A stretch of DNA of 64,000 bases. Origin: Phoronis australis. Lineage: Eukaryota > Animalia > Phoronida. The notes below the pieces were generated by a model. The model was not told where the DNA came from and did not search any database. It saw only the letters and a list, made by a program, of their open reading frames with translations. Positions 15,407 to 62,270 of the stretch are shown here, in pieces. The stretch is taken from the NCBI GenBank assembly GCA_002633005.1, contig NMRA01000383.1, positions 136,951 through 200,950 on the forward strand. Direction: 5' to 3'. Numbering within the stretch: position 1 is the first letter of the stretch; every line of letters starts with the position of its first letter. The position numbers and the translations under genes were made by a program.

Positions 15407-17406
15407 AACAAGAGCAACGCGGAGCGTTGAAATGCGCCCACAATTGCACCGCATACGGTATCCTTCTAGGGTTGTTTATTGGTACCATAAAGTGGCCAGT
15501 AGAGGGCATACTTTGCAAAATGGAAAGGCATGGTCATTGTCTCCTCAATAGGCTAGGGGCAAAATGTGAGTAATCTTCATAATACAAGCACATCCTATAC
15601 ACCAGTTGCTTAAAGCACCACAGAAACATAGAATTAAAAACAAATTTACCAACATACGAGATTAGCACAGCATTAGAATGCCAGAAACAAATTTCTACTT
15701 GGAACTTTTCCTTCACAGTCACGAAGTAACACAAAGTATACACCTGAAGACCTATGAAAATACAGAGGTCAATGTAAAATACTAAAATTGCCACTAGAGG
15801 CAAATACTAAAATTGCCACTAGAGGCATACCGGTAATCAGAATCATCCTAAAGTCGTCATCGTCCGTTGTCAACATCACATAAATACACTTGCTAAATTT
15901 AGTAAAGATCCTGCAAACGGTTTGGGAGATACAGCCATGGGCGCAAAAAAACAAAACTGCCACTAGGAGGCGCCACAGTAGTCCAAATCGTCTGAAAATC
16001 ATTGTCAGCTGTCTTCCTTATAGTAAGCACATACACGCCAATTTTCACAATCATCCTTTGAGCGGTTTGGTTGATAGAGGGGTGGACGCAAAAATACAGA
16101 CTCGAAAACAGTAAAAATGGCCACTAGGTGGCGCAAACTACGTCGAATCCATCTGAAAACAGTAGGATAGCGTCATCTCACTAATAGGTGCCTACATACC
16201 AAATTTCATGAAAATCCGTTCAATACTTTTGAAGATACAAAGGTAAGCGTAAAAAACTAAAATTGCCACTAGGGGGCACACCGGTAGTCGGATCCGACCA
16301 AAAGTCGTCATCTTCCGTTGTTAACATCATATAAATATACTTACACAATTTGTAAAGATCCTGCGAACGGTTTAGGAGATACAGCCATAGGCGCAAAAAA
16401 ACAAAACTGCCACTAGGAGGCGCCACAGTAGTCGAAATCGTCGGAAAATCATCGTCAACCATCCTCTACATAGTAAGCATATACATGCCAATTTTCACAA
16501 TCATCCTTTGAGCGGTTTGGTTGATAGAGGGGTGGACGCACAAAAACAGACTCGAAAACACTAAAAATGGCCACTAGGTGGCGCAAACTATGTCGAATCC
16601 ATCTGAAAACGGGAGGATAGCGTCATCTCACTAATAGGTGCCTACATACCAAATTTCATGAAAATCCAATAAGGACTTGTGAAGATACAAAGGTAAGCGT
16701 AAAAAAATTAAAATTGCCACTAGGGGGCACACCGGTAGTCGGATCCGTCCAAAAGTCGTCATCTTCCGTTGTTAACATCATATAAATATACTTACACAAT
16801 TTCGTAAAGATCCTGCGAACGGTTTAGGAGATACAGCCATAGGCGCAAAAAAAACAAAACTGCCACTAGGAGGCGCCACAGTAGTCGAAATCGTCGGAAA
16901 ATCATCGTCAACCGTCCTCTACATAGTAAGCACATACATGCCAATTTTCACAATCATCCTTTGAGCGGTTTGGTTGATAGAGGGGTGGAAGCACAAAAAC
17001 AGACTCGAAAACAGTAAAAATGGCCACTAGGTGGCGCAAACTATGTCGAATCCATCCGAAAACGGCAGGATAGCGTCATCTCACTACTAGGTGCCTACAT
17101 ACCAAATTTCATGAAAATCCGTTCAGGACTTTTGAAGATACAAAGGTAAGCGTAAAAAACTAAAATTGCCACTCGGGGGCACACCGGTAGTCGGATCCAT
17201 CCGAAAGTTCGCACATGCCGTCCCATTCATGAATGGAACATATGTGCCAAATTTCATGAATGTATGTCAAAGGGTTTTGGAGATAGAGCAGCGGACGCCG
17301 GACGCCAGACGCCGGACGGACGCCGCCCGGACGGACGGACGGCCGGAAGGACGGACAGAGATGACGGCATAATGCGTCCATATATAAATATGTGGGCGCA
17401 TAAAAA
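15407..17406 (+). mobile_element. Helentron-associated non-autonomous element (HINE-like) with an internal ~450-bp higher-order repeat of three ~150-bp subunits
   Basis: 5' palindrome CAACGCGGAGCGTTG; subterminal IR ATGCGCCCACA (15432-15442) / TGTGGGCGCAT (17391-17401); tandem core array ~15800-17290; (GACG)n microsatellite ~17293-17355; 3' hairpin 17372-17401 then A run. Confidence 0.75.
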
Positions 17407-32110: not shown

Positions 32111-35100
32111 TCGATCTCAATCTGAGTTTTGGCTTTGTTGAGACAATGGACTCTGGAGACTGCGTATGACTTAGGGCTTCGAATGAACAGGTAAAATCTT
32201 GGAATACACTAGCAGTAGTCTTCAGTCTGTTCTTTTAAGTTTGCAAACTCTAGCTTAGAACATGTATGAATTTTTCAGACATGTTGCACACGCATACACT
32301 ACCTATGCTGAGCAACTACAGATTTTTAAAATGGAATTCACAATACATTAATAGTCAGTAGGCATAACAAAACCAGTCTCTAGTTATCAGGGTATCACAG
32401 GGGAATCACCCTCTGTCTGAGGTCAGAACCGGGATCAAGTCGGTCGGTTTGAAGTTAATTCGCTGGTAATATTTAAGTCATTCACAGCAGAATGTAATAA
32501 AACACAAAACGTTAGTCTATAACTGGACGTATGTTTGCCGGCTATCAGCATTAACATAAACCCTATATATAAGCCACTAAAGTAATTAGAAAAGAAAAAA
32601 ATTTCCATCATTCGCTCGTTATTTGTACAGTACTCTCGAAGTTAAAAATAGCATCGGATTAGATGATAAAGTTATTGTGTGCGAACGTCAAGAATATGAC
32701 AGGGTCGTTTCTGAGCACATTTAAGCTTTATATTTCAACTTACTGGTGTGAGAGAATCTCTAGTCTTTGGTTACGATCCTCGAAGGGGAATCACTACAGT
32801 ATTCGTATCGACAATGCATAAATTTTGCATTACAGTAACCACGAGTTAAACAATCCTCTGGTGAGAAAATCAGACATCTGGATCATAGTAACCCATAATG
32901 CAACGCGCACCTGCTCTATAATCAAGGGAGATAACTTGATAACAAAGCCAATAGTACAATGTTGAACTTGTCAGTAATTGTGGAACCAGTATGAGTCTCT
33001 TACTGGTTCCTAGTTCTGACAGAGAGCGGCCAACTTGCAACCACTATAGTTGGTAAAGCAGAACAGAATTGTTTATTTGACCCATCACCATCGTTGTCTA
33101 AAAGCATATGACTGAGAATTTAAAATGTATTGGTGGATCAGAAAAACCCATTTCATCAGCACAGTACAGTTCCACAAATTTCACATTCTAATTTTTAGGA
33201 CCCGCCTTTCTGTTAATACAAACGTGATGTAATAGTTGTCATTTTTTACTTTTTATTCATTCTTAAACTATGTCTACAAGGAACCTTTATTTAACCATTG
33301 AAAATTAAATGCCACAGTCCCAGCGAAAAAATTAGTGAGTCCCATGAGGCAATTGAGCTGCCAGTATCACTACAATGAGATAGTAAGTTCTATTTTTTTT
33401 TTACTTTGGACTTACAATATTTCCAGCCATCCTAATTATTTTTCTCACCCTGGAGTCACAAAAAAATGATTTTTTGTGCAAATTTGTATGAGAGCGGTGA
33501 CATTACTTGATGACGAACTGGCTGCATGATTTTTAGTTGTGAGTGGGCAGTGCAGAGTTGACCAACTGTCCACTCTGGACAGTCAGAAAACCACAAGTCT
33601 CCGCTTTATTACTCTCTATTGCACAGCATGAAGGTAAGAGTTACTCGAAGAATTAAGATGCTTGATTTCATTTTTTTGCTCTTTTTCTGGACAGAAAGAG
33701 CCATTCTGGCTTCAGTTAAATTCCCCTAACAATTTGAGTATACTGGGAACATTTTCCTCACAAAAACTGATTTGAATGTCTATTTGCTAATCCCACTGAT
33801 TAACTGATGAGAAGTAATTAACATGTTTTATTACCAACACTTGGAGAAGACACAAAGGCAACGATGAGTCATAATAGTGTACCCGGCAGTGTATACTTCC
33901 TGAAAGCCTCTCAGTTCACTTCACACGATCAAGATAGTTAGGATGCAGAACACCAGGTGGCAGAACACCCCTCACGCAGATTACTTATTTTTACACTTCT
34001 TTACCAGTCTCAATGACTTTACTGTGACAAGCATCATGAGTGTATCTCTCTCCCTGTGACACGTAGACAATGGCTGAGCCGTTGTAAGGAATCCTGTCCA
34101 TTGTGTATTTTAATGCATTGTATTCATTTTACATATTGTATTTATTACTGCACTTTGCCCTATTTAGCCTTTTACTCAAATGAAATTGGGATCACCATAC
34201 TACTTACCATTATTCCATTTCCTTGGAGAACAAAACTGCTATGTGAACATTGATTCAAGAGAACGCTTCAGTTTGTTGAGGTCAATCATTGCCACAGATT
34301 TGAAAATGGTGTCATGTACGCATGAATTGCATCTCATGACTTCCCAGAGTTGCCTGCTCATTCAGCAACAAGTGATCACACTGACCGTGGTAGCATTTTC
34401 AAATCCCAAATTAAGTGCTTCGGCTATGAATTCAACATTGACAGCTAAAAAGAGAGCAGTGACATCAGTGCAGCTGTAAATATTGTCGATGTAAAGCGGC
34501 TACAAATCCACTTCCATCACAAAAACCAACTTTTGACTTCATCCACTTACCATTGTTCTCAATTTTTGCTCCTTGTAGTCAAACTGGAAGGGCTTTAAAA
34601 GAATTCGACAGTTTCCAATTCTTTAGACCAACCTCACAAGATTTTACGTGAAAGCGAGACATGACTTTTTATGAGCTTGGTGTAAAGACACAAATTTAGT
34701 AGTCGCCAGCTCTTTCAAAGCCCAAAGATGATTTCCAAACTGGCTAATTTTACAACAGTAATCAGGCTAAGCCAGAAAGCACGGGTTTAATGCCATTTTA
34801 AATGCCCAGCATGCAGCGCTGTCTCTGAAAAACAATCATTTGGTTCATGATTTGAGGTTGCTCCCTTTGCTTATTTTTCATATTATGAAGTAGCACAATG
34901 CTGATAAGGCCACTGGAAGGTTCCACGTTGCTAACTTGATTTATTCCAATTTGGAGTTTTGACTTGAACAAATTAGCGGTGCGTGTCTTTGATAAACTAG
35001 GCAAACACTCACTGGTCAAAAAGCTTTCATTAAGTCTCTGTAACAAACAAATATAACGATGCACATTACACGAATTCCACCACCACCATTTGAACATCTC

Positions 35101-36019
35101 AAGTAAACCTAGCTAACACAACATGGTCTTATAAATATATGAAACGTAGAATGTGAAAAATCAGCTTTGTCATTTCATGACCTACCCAGTAGAGACACAA
35201 ACACTACATAGATACATGTATAATGTTTATGGTGACCAAAACTAAAGTGACATGTATCATTTCAGTCACTGAAATTAATAAGTAACTTTGGAGAGTATTT
35301 CCTAAGAATAATGCTCAAAATCACCAACTTCAGTCAACACAAAAACATGACTTGCATAACATTGCAAATATTCCTTGTTTACTTTCACCTCCAGACAACA
35401 GCAGTTTCCACATCCAGTTCAAACTGTTGATCGCGCAGCTTTTTATCTTGTGTCGCGCACGCCAATTATGATCTAGCACAATTAAGGTGAACACATCCAT
35501 CCCTATTGTAATATTATTCACAAAATCCAATCACATGGTCTCTGAGAAATATAATTCTAACTATTAAACTTTTCACAAGGAAATCAAAGAGTCAAACGAG
35601 ATCAACATGAGTTGAAATGTGCCCATTACTGCTCCACAAATGGCATGCTTCTAGGGGTGTTGTTGGTATTATAAAACTGGCATAATACACAGAACTTGCC
35701 CAAAAAACAAAAATCAAAACTATATGCTTTTTCAACTAACATATATCTTTGAAAATCAAATTGCACCTTCTAAATAAACTGAACTGCACTCAGCAGTAAA
35801 ATGGCAAAACATGTCACAACACATCTAATACACCATGACATTACCTCCCCCTACTGTCAAACAGAAAAAGTTAAATGGCATATTAATAATTCTAAAGCTC
35901 AATGTAACATTAAAATTCAGAATATAAAATAAAATATTTCACTTGCATACCAACAGTGGAATGCTATGCATAGTAACATTGATTGTGCCTTTCATAATCA
36001 AAATAAACTGTTTCTGAAC

Positions 36020-36201
36020 TCAGTAGTAAATAGTATCTATAGTTTCAGTCTTTGAATTTGTGATGACATCACGCTCAAACTGGTGGATAGATTCGTCAAT
36101 TTGAACAAAGCCTTCAACTCCAAGTTCTTTTAGACGAGCTTCCCACTTTGTGTTTTTACCCATGTCCAGGAAAGCCAGCTTTAACTTTCTTTTTATCTCA
36201 T
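36020..36201 (-). CDS. PhnD-like substrate-binding protein, coding exon 5 (last): (D)EIKRKLKLAFLDMGKNTKWEARLKELGVEGFVQIDESIHQFERDVITNSKTETIDTIYY*
   Basis: Acceptor TTTTGCAG|, phase 1 matches exon 4, TGA at 36022-36020; absent from the ORF track. Confidence 0.8.
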
Positions 36202-36594
36202 CTGCAAAACAAAACTATGTCAGTACCACAGAATACTAAAAAGCATATCTGAGCATAATAGCTGTTTCAATTAATATGTTCATGAATTTTACAAATACGT
36301 GACCTCAATTGAGAACTATTTTGTTTAAGAAGCAATGACTGCCTGGAGTAGTCAAAGCCAAGACGACAGCTTTTACTCTCGTGAGCATTTGTGGTTATGT
36401 GCACGCATGAAAATCAAGACTTGGTCATAATTCAAGGAAATACAGTCAATTCACAAAAAGCTGACGATATGCACTAGAGCACTTCACAAGGACTGTTTTC
36501 AAAATTTTGGTCGACATCCAATGGGAATTAGAGGAGTTGAGCATAGAAAATTTCTCTGCAAGTGAGACGGATTAACATAAACAAAGATGCACAC

Positions 36595-36731
36595 AATGAT
36601 GCCTACTGTTACTATGACGCCTACTGTTACTATGACGCCTACTGTTACTATGACGCCTACTGTTAATATGATGCCTACTGTTAATATGATGCCTACTGTT
36701 ACTATGATGCCTACTGTTACTATGACGCCTA
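36595..36731. repeat. 18-bp minisatellite (ATGACGCCTACTGTTACT)n, ~7.5 copies, intronic
   Basis: Direct reading. Confidence 0.9.
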
Positions 36732-37136
36732 TCATATGGAAAATCGTTATAATTTGTAGTGCTATTATGATGGGTTCAGGAATGGGGACCTTTTTGTGAC
36801 AAGCTCAAAAATGACGACCATCTTTTAATTGTTTCAGATTGTCAAGTCCTTGTTGAACATTTTTCACTAAACAATGCAAGTTTAGTTTTTCACATTGATG
36901 TTCAAAATTTATTTCAAAATAACACGAGTGAGCAAACTGAACTGTAAACAACGATATAGTCAGGCATTTCCGGAAAGTGTAAAAATACTTTCTTAAAACA
37001 GTCATGCTTAGGACCAAAGTGAACATAAAAAATAAAATTGCCACTAGGTGGAGGCACAACAGCAGCCAATTGACCTCAAAATGAAAAATCATGCAAGAGT
37101 GGTATCTTACAATGGATCAGTAAATCAGTGATATAC

Positions 37137-37316
37137 CTGGCAATCTGTTGCTGACAACGATACCATAGGTAGATAAAGGACCCCATGAGGTAAGGACGTG
37201 TATCTTGTCACGAGCTTCAGGATGTGTCCGACAGTAGTGATCAAGACAAACTGAATGAACGGCTGATGCATCAGCTGTGAAATTCAACACAGCCTCGATA
37301 GACTTGATGTGTGAGC
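37137..37316 (-). CDS. PhnD-like protein, coding exon 4: (G)SHIKSIEAVLNFTADASAVHSVCLDHYCRTHPEARDKIHVLTSWGPLSTYGIVVSNRLP
   Basis: Acceptor TACAG|, donor CCAG|GTATAT, 180 bp, phase 1/1; GSH..SI.AV motif. Confidence 0.85.
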
Positions 37317-38067
37317 CTGTACCGGAAAAAAACATGCAAACAACTTTAAATCAGGTCAACATAGTTGCACAGATCAGATCTTTTTGTGAAATAAAACCCA
37401 TCAAGAAAGTATGCCTTGCATAAGCTCCCACATAAAGGCATACGCATTCAAATATGGAAAGAAACCAGGAAACTATGGGAACAGTAGTAATTTGACCAAT
37501 CTATTGAAATCACAATATTGACAATTATTATGAAAATTTAATTCTCAGTTTTGCAGTAATCATAAATTACCCTTCTAAATCCTGCGGGAGCTACATGTAG
37601 TACCGTCTTGCTAGTTTTTGTTTATAAACATGGAATTTTGCAAGACATAAAAGAAAAGTAATGACTTTGAATTCATTTTAGTTTGACAAAAATAGCAAAG
37701 ATTGCTTGTATTTGCTACTTATCCAAGGATCAACAGTTTTCCAAAATGTGGTAACAAGTTTACCCAGCCAATACAAATGTAATATGTTATCTCAGAGAAT
37801 GGAGTCATGTTTCATGGCAAGTCACAATTTGTCACATCTCAAAATTTTCAAACTGTCACAGCAACTTTGCTTTGCGTAATCTTACAATTTGTGAAAAAAG
37901 GAACCACCACTTGATGCTTCATAAAATAACTGTTAACCCAACAAATCACTAACAGCCAACTTGGCTCAGCAAATTTCTCACATTTGGTAACAGAATTCTC
38001 AAAATGTCACAGAATTTCATGCAAGTGAGTTTGGTAACAGAATGTCACATCACAGGAAATCTATTCA

Positions 38068-38630
38068 GGGCTGTTCCAGTAAAATCTGTATGGGAGGGGG
38101 GAAGGCACCTTTTTTTCGCACCCACCACCCATATTTTTCATTTATTTCTTCAGCCTACCACCCGTATTTTTTTATAAGTTTGAAATGCAACCACCCGTAA
38201 TTTTTTTTTTGTTCTTGTGGTTGACTGCACAGGCACTTGAGTTTATCTGTTCCTCCATCACCACTAACGTCATTCATTACTAAGAAAACATATGTTTCTT
38301 ATATAGCCATCGAGAAATTCGAGCACCTGTGATTAAATGGTGTTATGGGCATGCCGATGAGGAGATCAGAGGGACTGAAAAAGTCGGAGCTTTTTGCAAG
38401 TTGCATTTTTGTTTCAGTTTTTGATTCTGTGCGGATTGTTTATAAAATTTACTAAAATTACCCACCATCAAACATTTATGGCCCAATGAAACAACAACGA
38501 CCTGTAAATTTTTACTTTTTTGAAGTACGACCACCAGCCATTTTGAATTTAAATCAAACGCAACCACCCATAAATTTTTATTTCAGTTGCCTTCCCGCCC
38601 CCTCCCACACAGATTTTGCTGGAACAGCCC
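38068..38630. mobile_element. PIF/Harbinger (Tourist-like) MITE in an intron of the PhnD-like gene
   Basis: ~40-bp TIRs GGGCTGTTCCAGTAAAATCTGTATGGGAGGGGG...CCCCCTCCCACACAGATTTTGCTGGAACAGCCC, 3-bp TSD TCA on both sides, internal ACCACCC repeats. Confidence 0.8.
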
Positions 38631-39316
38631 TCAGTAATTCAGTTGGGAAACAATTACATAGCTCTGAATTTAAAATACCTATTTTAAATAAAGAAATCTT
38701 TTATTACTCAATATTCTACACGTTGAATGAATTTGAAAACACTTGATTCTAGTGTTGTATGTCAAGTCAAGTACAATAGGAAATCTGAACTTTTCTCCAC
38801 CAATCACTAGAATGTACAATGTCTAGCGAGTCTTTCCTATTCTCATCAAAGTTTTTGAACATTTTTAACTAAGCATATTTACTATTTAAGTAAAACAAAA
38901 TTGAGTTAAAATTAGAGCAGTGCGGAAAACTAATAATAAAACTGAGATAAAATAACAAATTATTTGTAGAATTGCAATTCTGAACCCGAAACAGAGCGTG
39001 ACTATTTGAGAAAAAAATGTCACACAAAAACATCAGTACGACATTAGTTGACCATTACAATTAAGAAAATCGTAGATATATATCATGTCTCTACTGTACC
39101 AGTTGTCATCAATCACGACATGTGGTTTAAACCGTAACAGTTCAAGTCATGCACAAAATTGTCTCGAACACAAGTAGTAGAGAACTGGCCTAAACCAAGA
39201 CTTGGTCTTTTTGGCAGAAGGTGGCTTTGTAACCTCCTCTAGTACATGAACAGCGAAAAAGCCATTTCCTTACAAGACATCAAGTAATATCGAGTCAGAT
39301 TCAGGTAACAACTAAC

Positions 39317-39462
39317 CAGTTTCTATTTTATGTCCAAAGAAAGAAGCATTAGTCCCCAGTCTCTTCAGCTCTGCCAGGGCTGCCAGATTGCTACTGATGG
39401 AGTCAGGTTTACTGTAGGCCCAGGTATGACCCTTCAGCTTGTGAAAATCAGAATAAACGTCC
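39317..39462 (-). CDS. PhnD-like protein, coding exon 3: (K)DVYSDFHKLKGHTWAYSKPDSISSNLAALAELKRLGTNASFFGHKIET
   Basis: Acceptor TTTCAG|, donor CTG|GTTAGT, 146 bp, phase 2/1; LKG..WAY...DS.S motif. Confidence 0.85.
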
Positions 39463-40439
39463 CTGAAACATTGAAAGCACAACAAATTACGTGACATTAC
39501 TGATGCCTAAAAGTTTTGTTTCCAAATTCCTTTTGAAGGAAGTAGATGAGAGGCTAAACAATGAGGTCAGCAGAAGTAGTTCCAAAACTTTGTTTCTCGA
39601 TTTACAAATTCAGTTTATTCTGAAGTTTGATGGCAAAAACTTTTGTCACAATCACTAATTCAGCTTTTAAAGGTAATGTGTGCTTCATGTGATTTTCTGC
39701 AGAGCTTATATCTCTACATACAAACCACGAGCTTTGATGGACTGAACAATGTGTTTATTGATTTTTACCTCAACATTTAATCTATTTCAGAAAGGATTCT
39801 GCGTCATGCCAAGTTTGATATTAATATAAAATTCAATAATTAATGATAAAGTCGGCAGTATTACAACAAATGCAAGCCCTAACCAAGAAACACAATTCCA
39901 CAGTATCGGACATTTTTCCCCATGTAAACGTTAGCCCTTACGGCAAGTTGCACGAAAATCATCATATAATCAATGGTTTCACAGTCTCTATTGAAATGTC
40001 GACACACAAGCAACTTCTTTGATATTGGCAAGAGATTGCATCTTCTGCCCAAAATAATGGTTTAGGGCCACTACCATTGAAATGACTGCTTGCACTGATT
40101 TCGGGGCTTGGGAAAAAGACTGTTCATTACTACATGATACCAGACTCATCAAGTTGGTTTGAACCGGTAAGTCATTGTAAGTGCCCAAAACACTGTAGTT
40201 CTCAACGGCACCTTTCAAGCTCCACCATTATCGTTCCTCCCACCTCAGCAACCTCCTCAGTGAGATGTCATTTTGGAAAGTCCGCACCCAACCTCCCTAA
40301 CTATGCCAATACCTGTTCCTATGTCACAGTGTCAACAATAATACGAAATCCTTGTTCAAACTCAAGGTTTTAAGAATCTCAATACCTAAAACACAAAAAC
40401 AAGAATAAATATATAAATACGTTGTTCTGTAACACTCAC

Positions 40440-40581
40440 TTTTTTGAGCTATTAATAATGACATCAGCATAGTAGACAGGTCGTCCCTGACTCAGCGGGT
40501 GATGATGCACAGCTCCAACAGGTAACAGACTGAAAGACTTGTTGTCTTGGCATCTCACAAAAGCAGAACTACACATGAAAC
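40440..40581 (-). CDS. PhnD-like protein, coding exon 2: (G)FMCSSAFVRCQDNKSFSLLPVGAVHHHPLSQGRPVYYADVIINSSK
   Basis: Acceptor TTGCAG|, donor AA|GTGAGT, 142 bp, phase 1/2; GRPVYYxDVII motif; absent from the ORF track. Confidence 0.85.
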
Positions 40582-40699
40582 CTGCAATAGAGCATTGACT
40601 CATTAAAGTGCGACTAGCATCAGACAGAACACTGTAAAAATCTGCTACAAACGTTTACCACCAGTTAGTTAGTCGGGGCTTATACACCAGCCAACTTTA

Positions 40700-41775
40700 A
40701 CATACCAGAGACATTCATACGTGTATGACAGTATTTTATGACTTTATACCGATCTGAAGCATAACAGACATTCATAAGTATGCGACACTATTTTATGTAT
40801 GGATCTGAAGCATAACAGATATTCATGAATGTGTGACACTATTTCATGTATGGATCTGAAGCATAACAGACATTCATAAGTGTTTGATACTATTTTATGT
40901 ATGGATCTGAAGCATAACAGACATTCATAAGTGTTTGATACTATTTTTGCATGGATCTGAAGCATAACAGACATTCATAAGTGTTTGATACTATTTTTGC
41001 ATGGATCTGAAGCATAACAGACATTCATAAGTGTTTGATACTATTTTTGCATGGATCTGAAGCATAACAGACATTCATAAGTGTTTGATACTATTTTTGC
41101 ATGGATCTGAAGCATAACAGACATTCATAAGTGTTTGATACTATTTTTGCATGGATCTGAAGCATAACAGACATTCATAAGTGTTTGATACTATTTTTGC
41201 ATGGATCTGAAGCATAACAGACATTCATAAGTGTTTGATACTATTTTTGCATGGATCTGAAGCATAACAGACATTCATAAGTGTTTGATACTATTTTTGC
41301 ATGGATCTGAAGCATAACAGACATTCATAAGTGTTTGATACTATTTTTGCATGGATCTGAAGCATAACAGATATTCATGAATGTGTGACACTATTTCATG
41401 TATGGATCTGAAGCATAACAGACATTCAAAAGTGTTTGATACTATTTTATGTATGGATCTGAAGCATAACAGACATTCATAAGTGTTTGACAGTATTTTA
41501 TGTATGGATCTGAAGCATAACAGACATCCATAAGTGTTTGACAGTATTTTATTATTATTTCTGTTTTTGTTGATAAAGGAAGTTGTTACCTCCGAAAATT
41601 TCAAATTTCAGTTGATCCATTCTTGTTGTTTTATTTACCGATTTATACAGTATTTTATGTATGGATCTGAAGCATAACAGACATCCGTAAGTGTTTGACA
41701 GTATTTTATGTATGGATCTGAAGCATAACAGACATCCATAAGTGTGTGACACTATTTTATGTGTCCATCTGAAGC
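40700..41775. repeat. 50-bp minisatellite, ~19 copies, interrupted by a 94-bp insertion, in an intron of the PhnD-like gene
   Basis: ATGGATCTGAAGCATAACAGACATTCATAAGTGTTTGATACTATTTTTGC at 40951, 41001, 41051 and so on. Confidence 0.95.
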
Positions 41776-42428
41776 ACTACATGCTTTTAATAAGAAGACA
41801 GTAAACAAATTTCCAAGTTTAGATGTCACTGAAGCAAGCATGCCAAAATCTAGGACTCAGGATTCTAACCAAAATAAATTCAAGGAAGTGCTATATGCTG
41901 CCCACTCTTCGTACCACTGGTTCATAAATAACTTTTTGAAAATCTACGCTGTGGCCTGCCTTTCAGGACACATTTGCCCAATAAAAATGCCCACGTTGAT
42001 ACAACAGCCTATAACATTGGTTGTTTCTAATGTTTTTCCAGGAAAGGCAATGCACTAAAATTGAATTCAGCAGTTCTGGCATAAAAGAGTAAATATTCAC
42101 CATGCTGAATCCTTACACAGCAAAGAGAATTGAGTAGTCAGAGAAATTTACGGACATTCAAAATTGTTCTCTGGCCACCCATAGCACACCTGCGCTTTGA
42201 AATTTATATTGAGATTAAAAAACAGTGGCAGATTTTGAGGGGGCCAAGGAGGCCATGCACCCACCCCCCACCCCATTTCTCCCAGATTACATTGGGCACT
42301 TCGGGGGTGCGAATGTCTGACGAGCAAAATCCTGGCTAGTACTCTGCCCTGCCCCCCCCCCCCAACTCAAAATCCTGGATCCACCCTTGCAAAGTTAATG
42401 CAAGAACATCCCTTTACAAGTTTCATAC

Positions 42429-42621
42429 CTATATCAGCAAGTCCAGAAGCAAATACGTCTGAACGCGGTTGATCAGGTGGGCCATTCCATCGTGAATCAA
42501 TCATAAGAAACGCCTCAACATTGAACACCTCTTCCAAGTAGTCTCTGTAGATTTCAAACAGTTCAACAGGTAAGTCTCGCGTCAGGTAAGATATCAGCTT
42601 AAGGGTTTTGACGTTAGACAT
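42429..42621 (-). CDS. PhnD-like protein, coding exon 1: MSNVKTLKLISYLTRDLPVELFEIYRDYLEEVFNVEAFLMIDSRWNGPPDQPRSDVFASGLADI
   Basis: Acceptor TTTCTTTGTTTCAG| (exon starts 42635, so an upstream exon exists), ATG 42621, donor TAG|GTATGA. The five exons sum to 843 nt = 280 aa + stop in one frame. Confidence 0.85.
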
Positions 42622-43482
42622 ATTGAAGTCTTGGCCTGAAACAAAGAAATTAAATGTTATAAAAGCTTTATTTTCAATATTAATTTCCAACACCATCCGC
42701 AACTGAATGCCTAAAAATTAGCATTTGCTTCAGTATAGCTGATATAAGTCATAACTACAAAAAAACTTTTAATATCGATGTCCAAAATTACTAAGCCACA
42801 ACCACAGGAGCAAAAGATGACAAATATAAATACTTGGCATTCAACAAATGAACAAAGACTGAATATTACTCAATATTTACCAACTCAATGCAATATATTT
42901 GGACATTTTCATATTCTTTGTCACAGTAAAATAATTGAACAATGAAAATTTCAAATTGATTAACTGAAAATTGGCATGGAGACACTAACTGGGATATTAT
43001 ACTCCACACGCCACATGTATAAGTCACCTCTCTTGATCACACAATTTTTAAATCTGAAAGTGATTCTTGGAATAAAAATCTTTGAGACGTGAAAACCGTT
43101 ATCAACTGGTGATGTGTTTCTCAGAATAATTCGACATTAAAAACAAGTTAATCTGATGCTCAACTTGTATCAAACCTAAATATTAATAAACAACACATTT
43201 ATAGACAAAATAATTAAAGTGAGAAATCTAAAATACAAAGTTTATGATCAGGCAAGATTACACTGAACAGTTAGTAGTGAATTTTGAAATGAAAATACAA
43301 GGTTAGAGATGAAAATCCAACTTCAAAAACCTTAATTTCCTTGAAATGAGAATTTCCTAATCCAACAGTAAATTCGTTACCAACTGCTGACATAATTCTG
43401 ACATGATAAACAAAAATTTCAAAAAAATTCAGCATATGATGTACACATATATCTGTGTACCAAAAAGAGTTTGAAGGTTTAA

Positions 43483-44794: not shown

Positions 44795-45622
44795 TTGCTG
44801 TACGTGAACTTGGAATCCTGCTTAATCGCAAGATTAATCGGAAGTGAGTGTTGCCCAAACTTGGAATACGCAAGGCAACTTGACAAGTTTACTTAAACAA
44901 TCACGTTCATGTTCTTAAAAATTTGCATGCGCACTAAATCAAGTTACATTTGAATAAAATAATGTCAATGTTAACCAACCTTTTCAACTACGGGTGATCA
45001 GTTTCACCAAACAATAATCGATTTAGCCATTCACATATAACTCTTGTTCACCAACTTAAGTTACAGTAAAGGAGAAAATGGTTGATAGTGAGGCCAATAA
45101 TTACAAAAATTCTTTTCACCGAACAAAAAATTCACCTTTTTGCCTTAAAGTTCACGCACAGCAGATTCGTTGCAGTGCATGAACTTGGAATCCTGCTTAA
45201 TTTCAAGATCGAGTACATATGCGTGAACTTCGAATTGAATATTCATTTGAGGAATTGGCGGGGTAAAAACTTTTGTTCAGCCTAAAGAATTTAGTAATTA
45301 TTGGCCTCATTATTAGCCATTTTCTCCATTGGCGTAACTTGTGCCAAAGAATCAGAGGAGTATGTAAATGGTTAAATCAATTACTGTTCGGTGAATAAGA
45401 TTGCCAGTACAGTAGTTGAAAAAAATTGGCTAAAATCTAGTTATTTTATTTTAAATAATAAACATGTAATTTGATATAGTGCATGACAAATTTTTATCAA
45501 AGAGAACGTGATTATTTCAGTGAACTTGTCAAATTTCCTCGTGTGTTCCAAGTTCATGCATACGCGATCTTGAGATTAAGGAAGCATGATTCCAATCCTA
45601 AGGCTAAGTTCACGAACAGCAA
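44795..45622. repeat. ~830-bp degenerate palindrome (foldback-like)
   Basis: Arms ~44795-45135 and ~45265-45622 are reverse-complementary, e.g. GGAGAAAATGGTTGATAGTGAGGCCAATAATTAC vs GTAATTATTGGCCTCATTATTAGCCATTTTCTCC. Confidence 0.85.
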
Positions 45623-46456: not shown

Positions 46457-46478
46457 GGTAGGGAAGCACGTCTATAAC

Positions 46479-47410
46479 TAGGCAATGACCATCGCCTCTG
46501 TTGGCCCGAAGCAGAGGCGATGTAGAGGCTATAGGCGCTCTGTACGCCGGAAGCTTTTCGGCGAATTATGCCTCGCACCGACTAAACCATCAAAGTCACG
46601 TTGTTATAAATACCTTTTGCGCATAGAGGAACACCTTAGGAGGTTGTCGATGTGTTTAAGTTCTTCCAACTCGAACAAATACTCCCGTTATGAAACTTTT
46701 TCTTCGATCAGTCCCTATTTCAGTTCCCAAAATCGTGAAATCAAAATTTTTGTACTGCGCACGCTCCAATTTTTACCGCGCTCGCTAGGTGATGTGACTT
46801 CATAACCTCAATAATTTTTAAATAGGCCAAAGGTGAGCCATTGCGGTCTTGTCAGTCAAATGTTCGTTTCCAAAATGCCACCACTTATACTTGTCTTTAA
46901 TTGGCGTTACTTGAAACTGTTTGTATTTCAATGAATTATTGTTTGTATTTGATAAAAATAAATGCTGTTGATATGACATTTAATAGTCTTTGTGCACATA
47001 TTTGACATTTTAATGTTTAACAACACGGCAAATGCACGGCTGGTTCCCGGCAGCACGTACGCAAAGGGCGGGAACTTCAGCTTTCAAAGTTCGCCGGTAG
47101 GATCGCAACTTCTGACCTTCGGCCTGGTTAAAAAAATGAAAATTTTGATTTCACGATTTTGGGAACTGAAATACGGACTGCTCGAAGAAAAAGTTTTATA
47201 ACGGGAGTATTTGTTCGATTTGGAAGAACTTAAACACATCGACAACCTCCTAAGGTGTTCCTCTATGCGCAAAAGGTATTTATAACAACGTGACTTTGAT
47301 GGTTTAGTCGGTGCGAGGCATAATTCGCCGAAAAGCTTCCGGCGTACATAGCGCTTATAGCCTCTACATCGCCTCTGCTTCGGGCCAACAGAGGCGATGG
47401 TCATTGCCTA
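46479..47410. mobile_element. Mutator-like (MULE) non-autonomous element in MUL1 intron 1
   Basis: ~270-bp nearly identical TIRs (46479-46750 / 47139-47410) and 9-bp TSD GTCTATAAC (46470-46478, 47411-47419). Confidence 0.85.
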
Positions 47411-48063
47411 GTCTATAACTAGACTAGAAAACCTGTCCACGACCGGGTAGGCTATGTCCTATGATCATTCTGTCAACAAGACTTAGCGTCATTACAGTCA
47501 GTGTGCTCGTAGTTGAACGGAAACGTAGAGAGTTTTATGGAAGATCATTTGTATGCCAGGCTGCCAGCCATACCAAGAGGCAGCATTGAGCACAAGTGGA
47601 TTTATCAGTTGTGTTGGCTTTCATCGTCATGAAATAGAGCGTCACCTATTGGCCAGCTTCTAGTTTAGACTATTTTTCAATTAACTGTTCTTCTGGCACA
47701 AGGTTACATACAAATCACAACAAATTAAATTTTTAAGTAATGTATTACCAACAAACCATTGAATTTCTGGGCAAAAAGTTGCCATCATGTCACATAAAAT
47801 TAGAAACTGGCATGTGTGTGTCACTGGTGTTTTGTTTTCAAGTCGAAAGGGCTTTTCTCCCTTCCAAAAGTCTTTTTGGATGTTGATAACCTCGTCTTTG
47901 AATTTAGAAACTTCAGATTTCGTGCAGCTCTCAAGTTCGGTATTGTAGTCGTACCATGTACCAAAGTCATGGAGGCTGTCTGATCATAAGATTATGATAG
48001 AAAATTTGCAAATACGACTTTGGTATCAACTTTTCAAGTAAACTTTCCATGTCCTCGTTGTAG

Positions 48064-48263: not shown

Positions 48264-50546
48264 GTATCTACTGTTATTTAGCAGCTTTCACCCGTCTTCC
48301 GTCATATTTAGACCACTTACTGTTATGAAACTTGTCTCAAACTGTTCCTTAGTTAAATTGGACATGGGGATTAGGACATGGGTTAGGGATGCGAAAGAAG
48401 TGACAGTTATTATTGCTTGAGGCTAGTTGGCTTGCCACGCCATTTTGTCCGCCAAGCATGGTTCCAGCAAATAACAAATTGTCAGTTCTTTACAAAATCA
48501 TAATCTTGTCATTTTGAGTAAGAAAAAAGTTGAGATAGATTTAATTGGGTCAAGTGATCTAAGTGACAAGTTCACTTCTTGGCCGGATCACAGATGTAGA
48601 GCCTCTTTAGCTGTAATTAACATAGAGTTATATACCTAGGAACAAAACTAAGTGATAAAATAGGACCCACAAAACTGCTTACTCTCAAACCCACCACTCA
48701 GCACGTAAGAGCCAGTTTAACGTGTTAAAAATATTGCTTGAGTATTTATTGCATGTGGACATAGTAGAAATTTGAAGACTTGGATTGTTTCGATTTAAGA
48801 TTTGCCTTATTTCAGAATTTGAATTATTTCTTCTGCAAGGGACTGGAACAATTATGGGGCTGTACCCCTAAATTCCAGCTATGATTTCCTAAACTCTAGT
48901 CCTAGACTGGCGAACACCAAAATCTCAGTACAAATTTCATACCCGTCCCCCTAAATTTAACACACCTGCTGTTTAACATGCCATTCCCAGTGTCCAAACT
49001 CCACCCCTGGGTACCAGATTCTTCACTTGCATCAACTGATCCACTAGTCCACAGATCCAGGGTTTGGTCAATGCATATGAACTATTATCGGCGTGTCTGC
49101 GTATTCATCTAAAAAGTTCAAAGTACATCTATTAAGTGAGTATTCTCACCCATTCATAATTATGACACTGGCATCTGAGCATATTGCAAGATTTTAATTC
49201 GATGAGTGTTATTGATTTCGATACTTTTGATATCGCTGTTAAATCTACTCACCAATCTCAGTATTTGTACTCTAAGTAAAAATAAACGTGGGGCCACATA
49301 TTCTTCTTGCTTACAACCCCTAGAGTTCTTGAAAGACTTTCAGCTCATGTTATTGCATGTGTTATTTCTCCTAACTATCTTCTCTTCTAAACCGTCTATC
49401 TTAAAATCTCTAGAAATCTTTAACTGGTATGGAATACTGACCAAAAAATTCTTGTAAATATACATGTTGCAGTTTGTCATCACGAGAGTAATGACTGTGA
49501 AAGAATAAGTTTCATTGAAAGTGGCCTCTTGAGAACAAATCTTTTTATTTTTACTGTCATTTAGTTTAGTACCTGTCATTTCTGTATAATTTCTTTTTTC
49601 AGGTCATATAGAAGTATTCTGTAGACTATTCACGATCTTAAATCCACTTTACATTAGATTTTAGGATATCAATCCCTAAATGTTTTTTTTTTTTCAATTC
49701 TTCCAGTTCCTGTTTAATAGCATTCATTTAAAGGTTTTTTTTAAATTTGCATCAAGAGAGAGAATTTCATTTATGGTTTTTATTTCGGTTTGTAAATAAG
49801 CCAATCTCTCTAACCCGTGCTTCTCTTTGCAGACACTTTGTGGGATTGTCATATTTCAAAAAATAATTTTTCATTTATATTAAGTTCTAAAGTATTTGAA
49901 GAAATATTTGATATTTTGTCTTGATATAGAAAAACAGCATACTTACTTTTCGTGTAATGAATAACATCTGTCATCTTTAAAAGTGTACTATTGAAGTACC
50001 AAAAACTTCAAACTTTTGTAAAACTTGAGAAATCAAAAAAATACTATAATGATCCATTCTATAGCATGGAAAAACTTCAATTTTTTCAGCGCATGACAGT
50101 AACTCTTTACTAATTAGACAAAAATGAAGTCATTTTTAACCCATTTTTTCATCCAAGTATTCTCATTCACAATGAATTACATGTTCTCCAGAGACCATCT
50201 TTTATTATTATTATTTGTTGTATAATAACAATCTGACTCGATATCATGGACTAAATTCCAGTCTTCACACAGAACAGAAAAATCAGAATTTAATTCATAA
50301 TAGAGTAGATTTTGAATTCTTATAGAAATCTTGGCTATCTGTGTTGGGGATGTAAACATTAACAATAGAGATTGCGGTTCATGTTTCAACAAGTATCTCC
50401 AATATAAGGTAGTTTCCATCCTGATCACGTATATCTCATTTAACATTGTGCTCAAAATTATTACAATCTACACATCATGAAAATAACAAGTGTTGTTTCA
50501 CTGATTGGTATGCATTATTTCATTTCAAGTTTGTTCTTGTTTCTAG

Positions 50547-51282
50547 GCATGACTTTGTCAACACAATACGCGATCACACTAACTGGGTGCCTTTCACTCT
50601 GAAGAACAAAGACTCAGGCAACACTGCCATTCATGTGACAGAACCAGGCTCTGCTAAATACCTGGATTTCTCAACAACCTACGACAAATTTGAGCCAAAC
50701 CAAACTGGTATACTGGAGAGGGGACTAGATCGTCTTTTCGGAGATGTCAGTAAAGGATTTCAAGAGACTGAGAGCATGTTAAAAGTAGGTGCCACTCTTC
50801 TGGGTGTTGGAAAGATTGCCTTGGAGGATGGAAAGTTGAAGTTAAAACCATCACCAGACAAGCTGTACATCTTGACCGAGCTATCAAAAGAAGAAGTATT
50901 AAGCAAGCTACGATCAAACTCCACTGTATTTAAAGTTTTCACTTACATATTAGGTATATCCAGCGTCGTTATTCTGGTAATAGCTCTAAGACACAGATTA
51001 CGTGACTTTTTGAGCCGCAGAAACTTCAACGAACAGTTGAGGACGATCAGAGATGCCATTCGTCGGCATAGAAACGACGACGTCGACGGGGGCGAAAGGG
51101 AAAATGCAGAAAATGATGGCCAAAACTGCGTTATCTGTCTGACGAATCCCCGCGAAGTTGTGCTGTTGGAATGCGGCCATATTTGTCTGTGTGCTGACTG
51201 TGTAGAGAAGCTGCCTACACCACGTTTGTGTCCCGTCTGCCGGCAACATGTCATACGAGTAGTACCAACATACATGCCATAG
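50547..51282 (+). CDS. MUL1: MUL1 exon 3 (GIDE domain, second TM, C-terminal C3HC4 RING)
   Basis: VPF.L, KGFQETESMLKVGATLLGVG, TM helix, CVICLTNPREVVLLECGHICLCADC...CPVCR; acceptor TTCTAG|; spliced total 346 aa. Confidence 0.93.
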
Positions 51283-61895: not shown

Positions 61896-62270
61896 CTATG
61901 ACTGCGAGGTGCATGAGGTGCCATGCAAGGACGCTACCTCTGCAGCAAACACTGGGTCCTTATACAGCTCATCAATCTCCTCTGGCTGAACATGCCTATG
62001 TTCCGAGCGCAGCGACCGTGCTGACTTGCTAGATTTGTTGCTCTTGGTCGACCTGGTCGACTTGCCACTACGGATGCTATTTGCCCGCGTCGACTGTCTG
62101 TGAAGCAGGTTTTGACTGATTGTGCGGTGTAAGTTCTTATTACTCAACGCCGCAGCGTTCATGATCCATGGATGCTTAAGAGCCTGGCTTGCCGTCATTC
62201 TCTCTTCAGGACTGATGACGAAGATTTGGTCGATGAAGTCCTTGGCTAGTGTCGACACGTCTTTCCACGG
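61896..62270 (-). CDS. PSKH1: Last coding exon of serine/threonine kinase H1 (CAMK group)
   Basis: PWKDVSTLAKDFIDQI...PEERMTASQALKHPWI (subdomain XI) followed by KNLHRTISQNLL and the STRSTKSNKS tail typical of PSKH1; acceptor TTTCAG| at 62271; upstream exons not seen in the window. Confidence 0.85.
   Translation of the reverse strand, partial: PWKDVSTLAKDFIDQIFVISPEERMTASQALKHPWIMNAAALSNKNLHRTISQNLLHRQSTRANSIRSGKSTRSTKSNKSSKSARSLRSEHRHVQPEEIDELYKDPVFAAEVASLHGTSCTSQS

Follow-up and report, generated by a model that had tools for sequence, protein, structure and literature searches.

The closest matches to the protein studied here, by profile and by fold, are ArrX of Chrysiogenes arsenatis (PDB 6X6B, 6XL2) and AioX of Rhizobium NT-26 (6EU7), which together with ArxX are periplasmic sensors of arsenic oxyanions and not subunits of transporters. 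ArrX binds arsenate with a Kd of 1 uM and phosphate with one of 150 uM, AioX showed no phosphate binding in ITC, the phosphoryl-binding core is common with PhnD, and the pocket residues by themselves do not fix specificity (PMC5908839). Other members of the fold include the phosphite-type binding protein PtxB (Trichodesmium, 5JVB; Pseudomonas, 5O2J), in which a Tyr cap keeps out bulky R groups (PMC5700983), and Escherichia coli PhnD (3P7I). Domains of the same Pfam family, PF12974, are also known to sense thiosulfate and tetrathionate (PMC5408782). We analyzed a 64-kb stretch of the Phoronis australis genome (the window) and found a PF12974 gene whose product resembles these proteins in its pocket and differs from them in its gene context, predicted location, and probable origin.

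The gene consists of five coding exons (Table 1) that are all joined by GT–AG introns in phases 1, 2, 1, and 1 and encode 280 amino acids in 843 nt, reproducing the exon lengths and all the motifs quoted in a preliminary description of the locus. In a Pfam search, exons 3, 4, and 5 matched PF12974 collinearly with the profile; exon 4 alone scored 32.3 bits against a cut-off of 27, exons 3 and 5 were under the cut-off, and exons 1 and 2 had no match. Expression was studied using three RNA-seq runs from one study with a matching species label. Stranded coverage spanned exons 2 to 5 and left the introns bare except at repeats, and reads crossed three of the four junctions (10, 13, and 28 reads for exons 2–3; 17, 8, and 19 for exons 3–4; 22, 18, and 28 for exons 4–5), with exon 1, the junction of exons 1–2, and the 5' end lying outside read coverage. 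Of 186 differences between reads and genome, the 40 listed include none in exon 4.

Table 1. Features of the PF12974 gene and its surroundings (positions within the window)
Feature	Positions	Strand	Content and evidence
Coding exon 1, 193 nt	42429..42621	-	ATG at 42621; strand 1 with Tyr12, Arg44, G-P...D-x-F insert; aligned with homologue N-termini, sequence only
Coding exon 2, 142 nt	40440..40581	-	Cys68 (AioX Cys106 position), Tyr101 (AioX Tyr131 position); reads
Coding exon 3, 146 nt	39317..39462	-	Ser133-x-Ser135; PF12974 profile and reads
Coding exon 4, 180 nt	37137..37316	-	His163, His181, Tyr211 (PtxB cap position); profile and reads
Coding exon 5, 182 nt	36020..36201	-	Ends Tyr-Tyr then TGA; profile and reads
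3' UTR, ~1 kb, approximate end	35000..36019	-	Stranded read depth reaches the 34896-35119 bin
5' leader, 14 nt, and splice acceptor	42622..42660	-	Pyrimidine tract and CAG ending near 42636; sequence
MITE-like repeat in intron 3, noncoding	38062..38636	.	39-nt terminal inverted repeats; multi-copy read depth
Tandem array in intron 1, 50-bp unit, noncoding	40751..41776	.	

The splice acceptor 14 nt upstream of the ATG (~42635) implies that a further upstream exon is likely. From the sequence, this exon is probably noncoding: the homologues begin at a position equivalent to the ATG, and a scan of donor sites up to 48050 for single-exon leaders gave 26 candidates, of which three had an in-frame ATG and none was signal-like. 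Hydropathy analysis of the 280-residue protein gave no hydrophobic N-terminus. The absence of a signal peptide claimed earlier thus held, as did that of a nearby transporter, tblastn giving zero matches to PhnC, PhnE, or a histidine kinase at E<=1 within the 64 kb. The gene is present as a single copy in the window and has eukaryotic genes on either side.

The family is otherwise prokaryotic in the sampled sequences, which could suggest bacterial contamination or a model spliced by chance. We consider the probability of this negligible, as the junction reads and the grouping of the protein with molluscs (support 95/82) refute it; furthermore, the protein is 44.5% identical to a bivalve protein and 33% identical to the best bacterial one, the exon-4 donor site is common to 25 of 29 short database fragments, and the flanking genes are eukaryotic. 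The five-exon gene is a genuine, expressed animal gene, as first described.

Homologues were collected by a HMMER search with exon 4, which gave 40 matches, four of them (P0023, P0026, P0037, and P0038) repeats or unrelated sequences. Word-based searches using single exons returned nothing, and neither a PDB search with exon 4 alone nor a search of 50,697 phage records found a match. In a set of 105 homologue matches, about half of them without a name, PF12974 was present in 104. The animal members form a family of ~280-residue proteins in echinoderms, molluscs, and arthropods, confirming the expectation of homologues in other invertebrates; the named carriers include snails, sea stars, spiders, and insects, Lepidoptera among them. 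The word-limited search found no vertebrates, cnidarians, sponges, nematodes, flies, bees, or beetles among the named matches, about half of the 105 being nameless. The family occurs in the sea, in fresh water, and on land, with many members from land snails, spiders, ticks, and insects. Two features characterize it: a C-terminal Tyr-Tyr, found in 70 of 73 animal homologues and none of 53 bacterial relatives, and Arg44, conserved in 72 of the 73. A hydropathy scan of 66 animal proteins flagged two for a signal peptide; P0053 has a true hydrophobic leader that ends at an internal Met, and the other was a parsing artefact. The databases know the animal members through automatic annotation only, and several arthropod ones have been named "PtxB" by NCBI; the automatic names PtxB and PhnD are misleading. 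A full-text search covering the main text of open-access papers found no literature on the animal family, in agreement with the function being undescribed.

The preliminary description had named PhnD and PtxB as the nearest family. In a profile search against solved structures, ArrX (2.9e-28) and AioX (7e-19 to 3e-18) came before PhnD (5e-14) and PtxB (4e-13), placing PhnD 14 orders of magnitude behind ArrX, and a second search repeated this order. The scores of three full-length animal homologues were below the cut-offs for the PhnD model TIGR03431 (65–76 bits vs. 261) and for the phosphate-phosphite-phosphonate ABC binding model TIGR01098 (87–94 vs. 112); against TIGR04553, a putative selenate ABC binding protein, two of them scored 42 and 33 bits (cut-off 250) and the third had no match. 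For the fold, we used structure models of the homologues P0050 and P0078 as stand-ins for the window protein. The P0078 model (pLDDT 95.4) has the two-lobed alpha/beta type II periplasmic binding fold, as anticipated, and the comparison hardly sets the arsenic sensors apart: the Z scores for ArrX (26.3), AioX (26.0), PtxB (25.2), and PhnD (24.8) are nearly tied.

The resemblance to AioX extends to the pocket, where the positions of Cys106, Tyr131, Ser161, Ser163, and His192 are all retained in the window protein. Four of these form an oxygen-binding core that is conserved across the 73 animal homologues: Tyr101 (Tyr in 57, His in 11), Ser133 (Ser in 70), Ser135 (68), and His163 (69). The AioX oxygen ligand Tyr88 is replaced by Trp45 (Trp in 27 of the 73, Phe in 13, Ser in 10), and Asp210, kept as Asp in 67, is His181 in the window protein. 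Compared with AioX and ArrX, which are ~25% identical to it, the window protein has no signal peptide and no visible kinase partner, and it has Tyr12 in the region of the signalling loop as well as the G-P...D-x-F insert. With PtxB it shares the fold, the Ser-x-Ser-His core, and a Tyr in the cap column (Tyr211 for PtxB Tyr208; Tyr in 54 of 73), whereas the animal protein is predicted not to be periplasmic, lacks PtxAC, belongs to a separate clade, and has Ile/Leu for the middle Thr of the STS motif; the cap partner Asp22 has no confidently mapped counterpart in the window protein. PhnD has in common with it PF12974, the fold (Z 24–25), and the Tyr, Ser, Ser, and His, while the positions of Glu177, Asp205, Thr128, Gly65, and Asn175 have all changed. 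The amine-holding Glu177 and Asp205 correspond to Val183 (Asn in 43 of the 73 animal proteins) and Tyr211.

The window copy departs from the animal family not only at His181 but also at Gly212 (Pro in 69 of 73) and Ser136, and its terminal branch is longer (0.73–0.77 vs. medians near 0.6). Judging by His181 and Gly212, this copy may bind another ligand or none. Together with the variability of the Cys and Tyr88 columns, these departures would fit a scaffold that has lost its ligand in animals or, in the window, a diverging paralogue without the ancestral ligand, with Cys68, His163, and His181 possibly holding a metal instead. We find this very unlikely: Ser-x-Ser and His are retained in more than 90% of the 73 animal proteins from three phyla, and the window copy, single there, keeps them in an intact, expressed reading frame.

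The phylogenetic analysis supported an old bacterial origin. The animal proteins form one clade (100/99) whose branching order tracks animal phylogeny, and their sister is a group of signal-less bacterial proteins (100/99), with further signal-less bacterial lines branching outside the two (100/99). A constraint joining the animals and six transporter-type proteins in one clade was rejected (p-AU 0.001). The animals are sister to the nearest bacterial group and not within it, and their nesting among bacteria relies on rooting the tree with transporter proteins. The placement within a signal-less, mostly transporter-free bacterial clade points to one old transfer, likely from a bacterium into a bilaterian ancestor early in animal evolution.

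The sister proteins, annotated as an uncharacterised "PhnD/SsuA/transferrin family," come from Acidobacteriota, Actinomycetota, Planctomycetota, Chloroflexota, Myxococcota, and cyanobacteria. They share with the animal proteins 33% identity, the T/S-Y-L-x-P start without a leader, and an insert, here G-P...D-P-F; unlike the animal proteins, they have an invariant Cys, no Tyr-Tyr tail, and no introns, and 51 of 53 have Gln in the cap column. Asp at the Asp210 position in 53 of 53 was discounted, being largely built in by a DNA search pattern that contained that Asp. We studied 157 bacterial loci in short neighbourhoods (means 9.9 and 4.9 kb). An importer was present in eight, seven of which had a separate binding protein. 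The loss of signal peptide and transporter, earlier seen as an animal repurposing, thus goes back to bacteria that already lacked the former and mostly the latter.

A stand-alone cytoplasmic gene could be explained by the protein being an enzyme. Thi5 and MqnA/MqnD of menaquinone synthesis are enzymes on the periplasmic-binding fold, and the bacterial relatives are signal-less and mostly transporter-free, with invariant Cys and His. Thi5 came up in the fold search only at rank 48, however; the best matches are binding proteins, no pathway recurs among the 157 neighbourhoods, and the Cys, the candidate nucleophile, is lost in most animals, making an enzyme highly improbable.

The same Cys could serve binding, as in AioX with arsenite: Cys68 would allow the protein to bind or carry, in the cytosol, an oxyanion that is pyramidal and reacts with thiols (arsenite, selenite, sulfite, or thiosulfate), with a role in detoxification or in selenium or sulfur delivery. 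The Cys is present in the window protein and shared by all 53 bacterial relatives, its position lying outside the search pattern, and thiosulfate- and tetrathionate-sensing PF12974 domains exist (PMC5408782). The gene adjoins SenA, SenB, or SelD in 8 of 157 bacterial loci, often directly behind a PtxB-like ABC importer, and the LysR there has a selenium-associated best model, below the cut-off; DsrE, TauE, OsmC, or a molybdopterin oxidoreductase is the immediate neighbour at individual loci. But all seven selenium loci with a named organism are from Rubrobacteraceae/Rubrobacterales and probably represent one event. SelD occurs in 45 of 50 carrier genomes (one, G032, unpublished), which lends weak support given a background of 68–75% in controls (82/120 in one carrier class, 45/60 in one carrier phylum). 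With five of five further carriers added, the excess (50/55 vs. 123/176, Fisher p 0.001) is open to confounding, since the carriers are related and the controls come from only two groups. No locus of the 157 contained AioA, an Aio-type kinase, or ACR3, or otherwise the arsenic-operon context sought. Lepidoptera retain the gene, although they are not known to have selenoproteins. Just 2 of the 73 other animal proteins have the Cys, so the family as a whole probably does not rely on a thiol to hold its ligand, and we regard this binding mode, with the roles it would imply, as unlikely.

No bacterial neighbourhood clearly indicated phosphate sensing. The commonest context was argS, the gene, a metallophosphoesterase, and a 438-residue protein (52 and 37 of 157 loci), mostly in a single lineage and amid housekeeping genes. 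The 438-residue neighbour, presumably a cyclic 2,3-diphosphoglycerate synthetase, had no family match in profile searches. This context, the PF12974 membership, and the phosphoryl core shared with PhnD (PMC5908839) would agree with a ligand from animal phosphorus metabolism, either a phosphonate (2-aminoethylphosphonate, methylphosphonate) or a phosphate ester (a sugar or glycerate phosphate). With Tyr88 gone and the insert added, a different side of the pocket could become accessible, and phosphonate production is known from molluscs and coelenterates and possibly from insects (PMC10574752). The missing amine-holding acids of PhnD, the TIGR03431 and TIGR01098 scores, the rejected clade with transporter proteins, and the one-lineage, housekeeping nature of the phosphoesterase context make it quite unlikely. 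The earlier link to 2-aminoethylphosphonate in marine invertebrates also fits poorly with a family common on land.

Given the conserved Tyr/Ser/Ser/His core, the protein is best understood as a cytosolic sensor or carrier that would bind a small inorganic oxyanion. Phosphate would come first as its ligand, followed by arsenic, selenium, or sulfur oxyanions; a phosphorus ligand is still likely, as inorganic phosphate and not as a phosphonate, and the spread over sea, fresh water, and land fits a universal metabolite. The missing leader would place the protein in the cytosol. There, Tyr101, Ser133, Ser135, and His163 would hold the oxyanion and the lobes would close around it, arsenate being bound as a phosphate mimic, while Tyr211 in the cap position would leave the pocket too small for aminoethylphosphonate. 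The Tyr-Tyr tail and the Arg44 loop may bind a putative partner and report or pass on the bound state; the last residues are of low confidence in both monomer models, which with the conserved Tyr-Tyr fits a partner-binding tail. We tentatively favour the whole, a signal-less clamshell binder of small inorganic oxyanions, most likely phosphate, that entered animals in one bacterial transfer and has the Tyr-Tyr tail as its output, at somewhat less than an even chance. A more specific version is possible but doubtful: a cytosolic sensor of bilaterian invertebrates, acquired before protostomes and deuterostomes split from the arsenic-sensor branch of bacteria, that directly reads phosphate in the cell, or arsenic or selenium oxyanions, and signals by the animal-specific tail.

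The sequences were already in databases, and what is new is their placement and a testable function. The analysis brings to light an uncharacterised branch of the AioX/ArrX sensors in the bacterial cytoplasm and a probable case of early bacteria-to-animal transfer with shared introns. The direct sensing of inorganic phosphate or metalloid oxyanions in animal cells is poorly settled. The family offers a candidate sensor that is small, soluble, apparently single-domain, and conserved in three phyla for more than 500 million years; if the proposed function is true, it would be a direct animal sensor of phosphate or metalloids of an undescribed kind.

We found the window gene to be a real and expressed member of a probably cytosolic animal branch on the arsenic-oxyanion-sensor side of PF12974. 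Splice reconstruction gave five minus-strand exons with GT-AG borders throughout and a 280-aa product, reproducing exactly the exon count, sizes, borders, phases and protein length of the preliminary description. In a Pfam search, the PF12974 profile aligned collinearly to exons 3–5, with exon 4 exceeding the cut-off, and the proposed family membership was thus upheld. In three RNA-seq runs from one study under the same species label, exons 2–5 were covered on a single strand at a depth of ~4–31 per bin, and 8–28 spliced reads spanned each of three junctions among these exons, a check that the preliminary description had proposed. Read support applies to exons 2–5, exon 1 and the 5' end being predicted from sequence; the 3' UTR reaches ~35,000. 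A splice acceptor 14 nt upstream of the ATG implies an additional upstream exon. A scan of 26 candidate donors yielded no leader-encoding exon and an in-frame ATG in three, and the protein aligned end to end with its homologues from a common start position, in agreement with the reported lack of a signal peptide.

Features of the window
Feature	Position	Strand	Remarks
Tandem array	15802-17208		unit 450 bp, 3.1 copies, 93% identity
Single-exon frame, 665 aa	22657-24654	-	repeated CxxC...PFFPFL modules and poly-Q tract
Codons of C-terminal x-Tyr-Tyr	36023-36031		conserved in the family
Codon of His181	37256-37258		Asp in the family
MITE-like element	38062-38636		39-nt inverted ends
Open frame, 148 aa	43919-44365	-	upstream of PF12974 gene
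Further inverted arms	44858-45554		nested
Inverted repeat, 274 nt	46477-46750 and 47139-47412		arms 98% complementary, 388 nt apart
GIDE+RING ligase	50425-51282		eukaryotic neighbour gene
Kinase exon	near 62,000		eukaryotic neighbour gene

PhnC, PhnE, a histidine kinase and a second gene copy were not found within the 64-kb window, and the earlier statement that it holds no transporter stands. The surrounding genes are eukaryotic, namely the RING ligase and the kinase exon, presumably MUL1 and PSKH1. The inverted repeats are young foldback-type elements separating the PF12974 gene from the ligase gene, and the MITE-like element, a multi-copy sequence, showed very high RNA-seq depth on both strands. 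Neither open frame had a Pfam match; we take the 665-aa frame to be the N-terminal portion of a GSE1-like protein, while the 148-aa frame is probably a decayed transposon piece.

A HMMER search with exon 4 followed by a profile search gave 105 matches. Among the named ones, about half of the total, ~280-aa family members came from echinoderms (sea stars, urchins and one sea cucumber), molluscs (bivalves and gastropods) and arthropods (horseshoe crab, spiders, ticks, one millipede, crustaceans, hemimetabolous insects and Lepidoptera), and the homologues anticipated in other marine invertebrates were present. The window protein was 44.5% identical to that of Ruditapes, 33% to the best bacterium and ~25% to ArxX/AioX. 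Residues were counted in 73 near-full-length animal proteins (42 named and 31 unnamed ones grouping within the animal clade), leaving out fragments, mis-spliced models and some near-duplicates. The exon-4 donor coincided with the breakpoint of 25/29 short database fragments (~8 near-identical); as starfish-type and insect-type fragments share it, the intron is likely ancestral.

The preliminary description had placed the protein nearest to PhnD/PtxB. A profile search of PDB instead ranked ArrX (2.9e-28) and AioX (~1e-18) above PhnD (5e-14) and PtxB (4e-13), and a second profile search agreed. Models of two homologues of the window protein (pLDDT 89.1 and 95.4) gave the same order in Foldseek, although the fold Z scores were nearly tied (ArrX 26.3, AioX 26.0, PtxB 25.2 and PhnD 24.8). 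For three animal homologues, no score reached the TIGR01098, TIGR03431 or TIGR04553 cut-off.

The AioX study (PMC5908839) lists Tyr88, Cys106, Tyr131, Ser161, Ser163, His192 and Asp210 as binding residues and sets AioX apart from PhnD by Cys106 and Asp210; in PhnD, the amine of AEP is bound by Glu177 and Asp205. The AioX-site equivalents in the window are Trp45, Cys68, Tyr101, Ser133, Ser135, His163 and His181. The amine-holding acids are replaced by Val183 and Tyr211, which speaks against the 2-aminoethylphosphonate reading, and a binder of phosphonates or phosphate esters seems quite unlikely. Tyr211 shares a column with PtxB Tyr208, described as a cap excluding bulky substituents (PMC5700983). 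Given this cap and the conservation of Tyr (57 of 73 animal proteins), Ser (70), Ser (68) and His (69), next to Asp (67), we infer that the three-oxygen clamp is intact and that the pocket is probably small. A Cys-dependent binder of arsenite, selenite or a sulfur oxyanion is unlikely. The Cys occurs in 53/53 bacterial relatives and, besides the window copy, in 2/73 animals. Thiosulfate and tetrathionate are also sensed by PF12974 domains (PMC5408782). The AioX study reports ArrX binding arsenate and phosphate and AioX arsenite alone with identical residues (PMC5908839), and the ligand is therefore not assignable from sequence. With its retained Cys and with His181, the window copy is atypical, and it may therefore bind another ligand than the family does; Cys68, His163 and His181 could form a metal site peculiar to its lineage.

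Bacterial relatives were collected by a pattern scan (77 genome loci) and from metagenomes (80 kept of 211 loci), and came from Acidobacteriota, Actinomycetota, Planctomycetota, Chloroflexota and few others. They share with animals a T/S-Y-L-x-P start and a G-P...D-P-F insert. In 29/69 and 36/74 loci an in-frame stop lay no more than 20 codons from strand 1, and among those lacking it a single case had a mildly hydrophobic upstream stretch. With bacterial relatives already leaderless, the signal-less state is older than the animal gene, contrary to the idea that the signal peptide was lost in animal repurposing.

We inferred LG+C20 trees of 51 and 41 rows, rooted on transporter-type proteins and with bilaterian sampling of eukaryotes; a quick 144-row tree used 49/77 genome loci. 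The trees agreed on monophyletic animals, branching as echinoderms, then window and molluscs, then arthropods. Their sister was the leaderless bacterial group (support 99/97 and 100/99), followed outward by cyanobacterial and other signal-less lines (100/99) and by AioX/ArxX with ArrX-like proteins (one ArrX-like protein checked); six transporter-type proteins stood apart (100/100). Constraining animals with transporter proteins was rejected (p-AU 0.001). The proposed ancient transfer is kept, most simply as a single old event from bacteria, in the bilaterian ancestor or earlier; the animals are sister to the nearest bacterial group and not nested in it. More signal-less Cys/Asp-type PF12974 lines were seen in cyanobacteria and Acidimicrobiia-class genomes (L078, L086, L087, L172, L178 and L179), and their Pseudanabaena member sits among three cadmium-resistance transporters.

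Among the 157 bacterial loci, a metallophosphoesterase lay nearby within a housekeeping run at 52, a PtxB-like importer at 8, and SenA, SenB or SelD at 8, every named one Rubrobacteraceae/Rubrobacterales; AioA, an Aio-type kinase and ACR3 were found at none, and two other loci had unrelated kinases nearby. The bacterial gene is mostly a stand-alone passenger, its function not fixed by context. SelD occurred in 50/55 carrier genomes (including the unpublished G032) vs 123/176 controls from two groups, a mild excess confounded by kinship; it was present, frequently with an in-frame TGA, in ~70% of the genomes sampled from these sparsely cultured groups (G001–G230), 1-Mb genomes included. The Rubrobacteraceae selenoneine-gene cluster (L013, L015, L020, L024, L030, L068, L076 and L128), with SenA, SenB and SelD exceeding NCBIfam cut-offs at L015, also holds an MTAP-like phosphorylase, a LysR closest to a selenium-associated model, and an ABC importer of PtxB type that carries the capping Tyr. 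This importer is a candidate for selenite uptake and is followed by a Cys-containing binding protein of the cytoplasm. A 438-aa protein (L009:7775-9091 and 36 more loci, in the run argS, PF12974 gene, metallophosphoesterase, glpX) had no Pfam or NCBIfam match; we assume it to be cyclic 2,3-diphosphoglycerate synthetase.

The C-terminal Tyr-Tyr was kept in 70/73 animal proteins and Arg44 in 72/73. We hold a ligand-free scaffold or diverged copy to be improbable, and an enzyme more improbable still. The tail, nearly invariant yet unplaced in monomer models, resembles the proteasome-gating HbYX motif and di-aromatic ER-export motifs, a lead to candidate partners. Public databases already carry family sequences under automatic PtxB/PhnD names; full-text literature searches, supplements and subscription papers being outside their scope, found no study on the animal family or its origin, and as a branch of the arsenic-oxyanion-sensor side of PF12974 it is undescribed. 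Our tentative preference, held at somewhat less than even confidence, is for a cytosolic clamshell protein that would take up a small inorganic oxyanion, phosphate foremost, and would transmit a signal, or transfer the ion itself, to a partner by means of the animal-specific Tyr-Tyr tail and Arg44.
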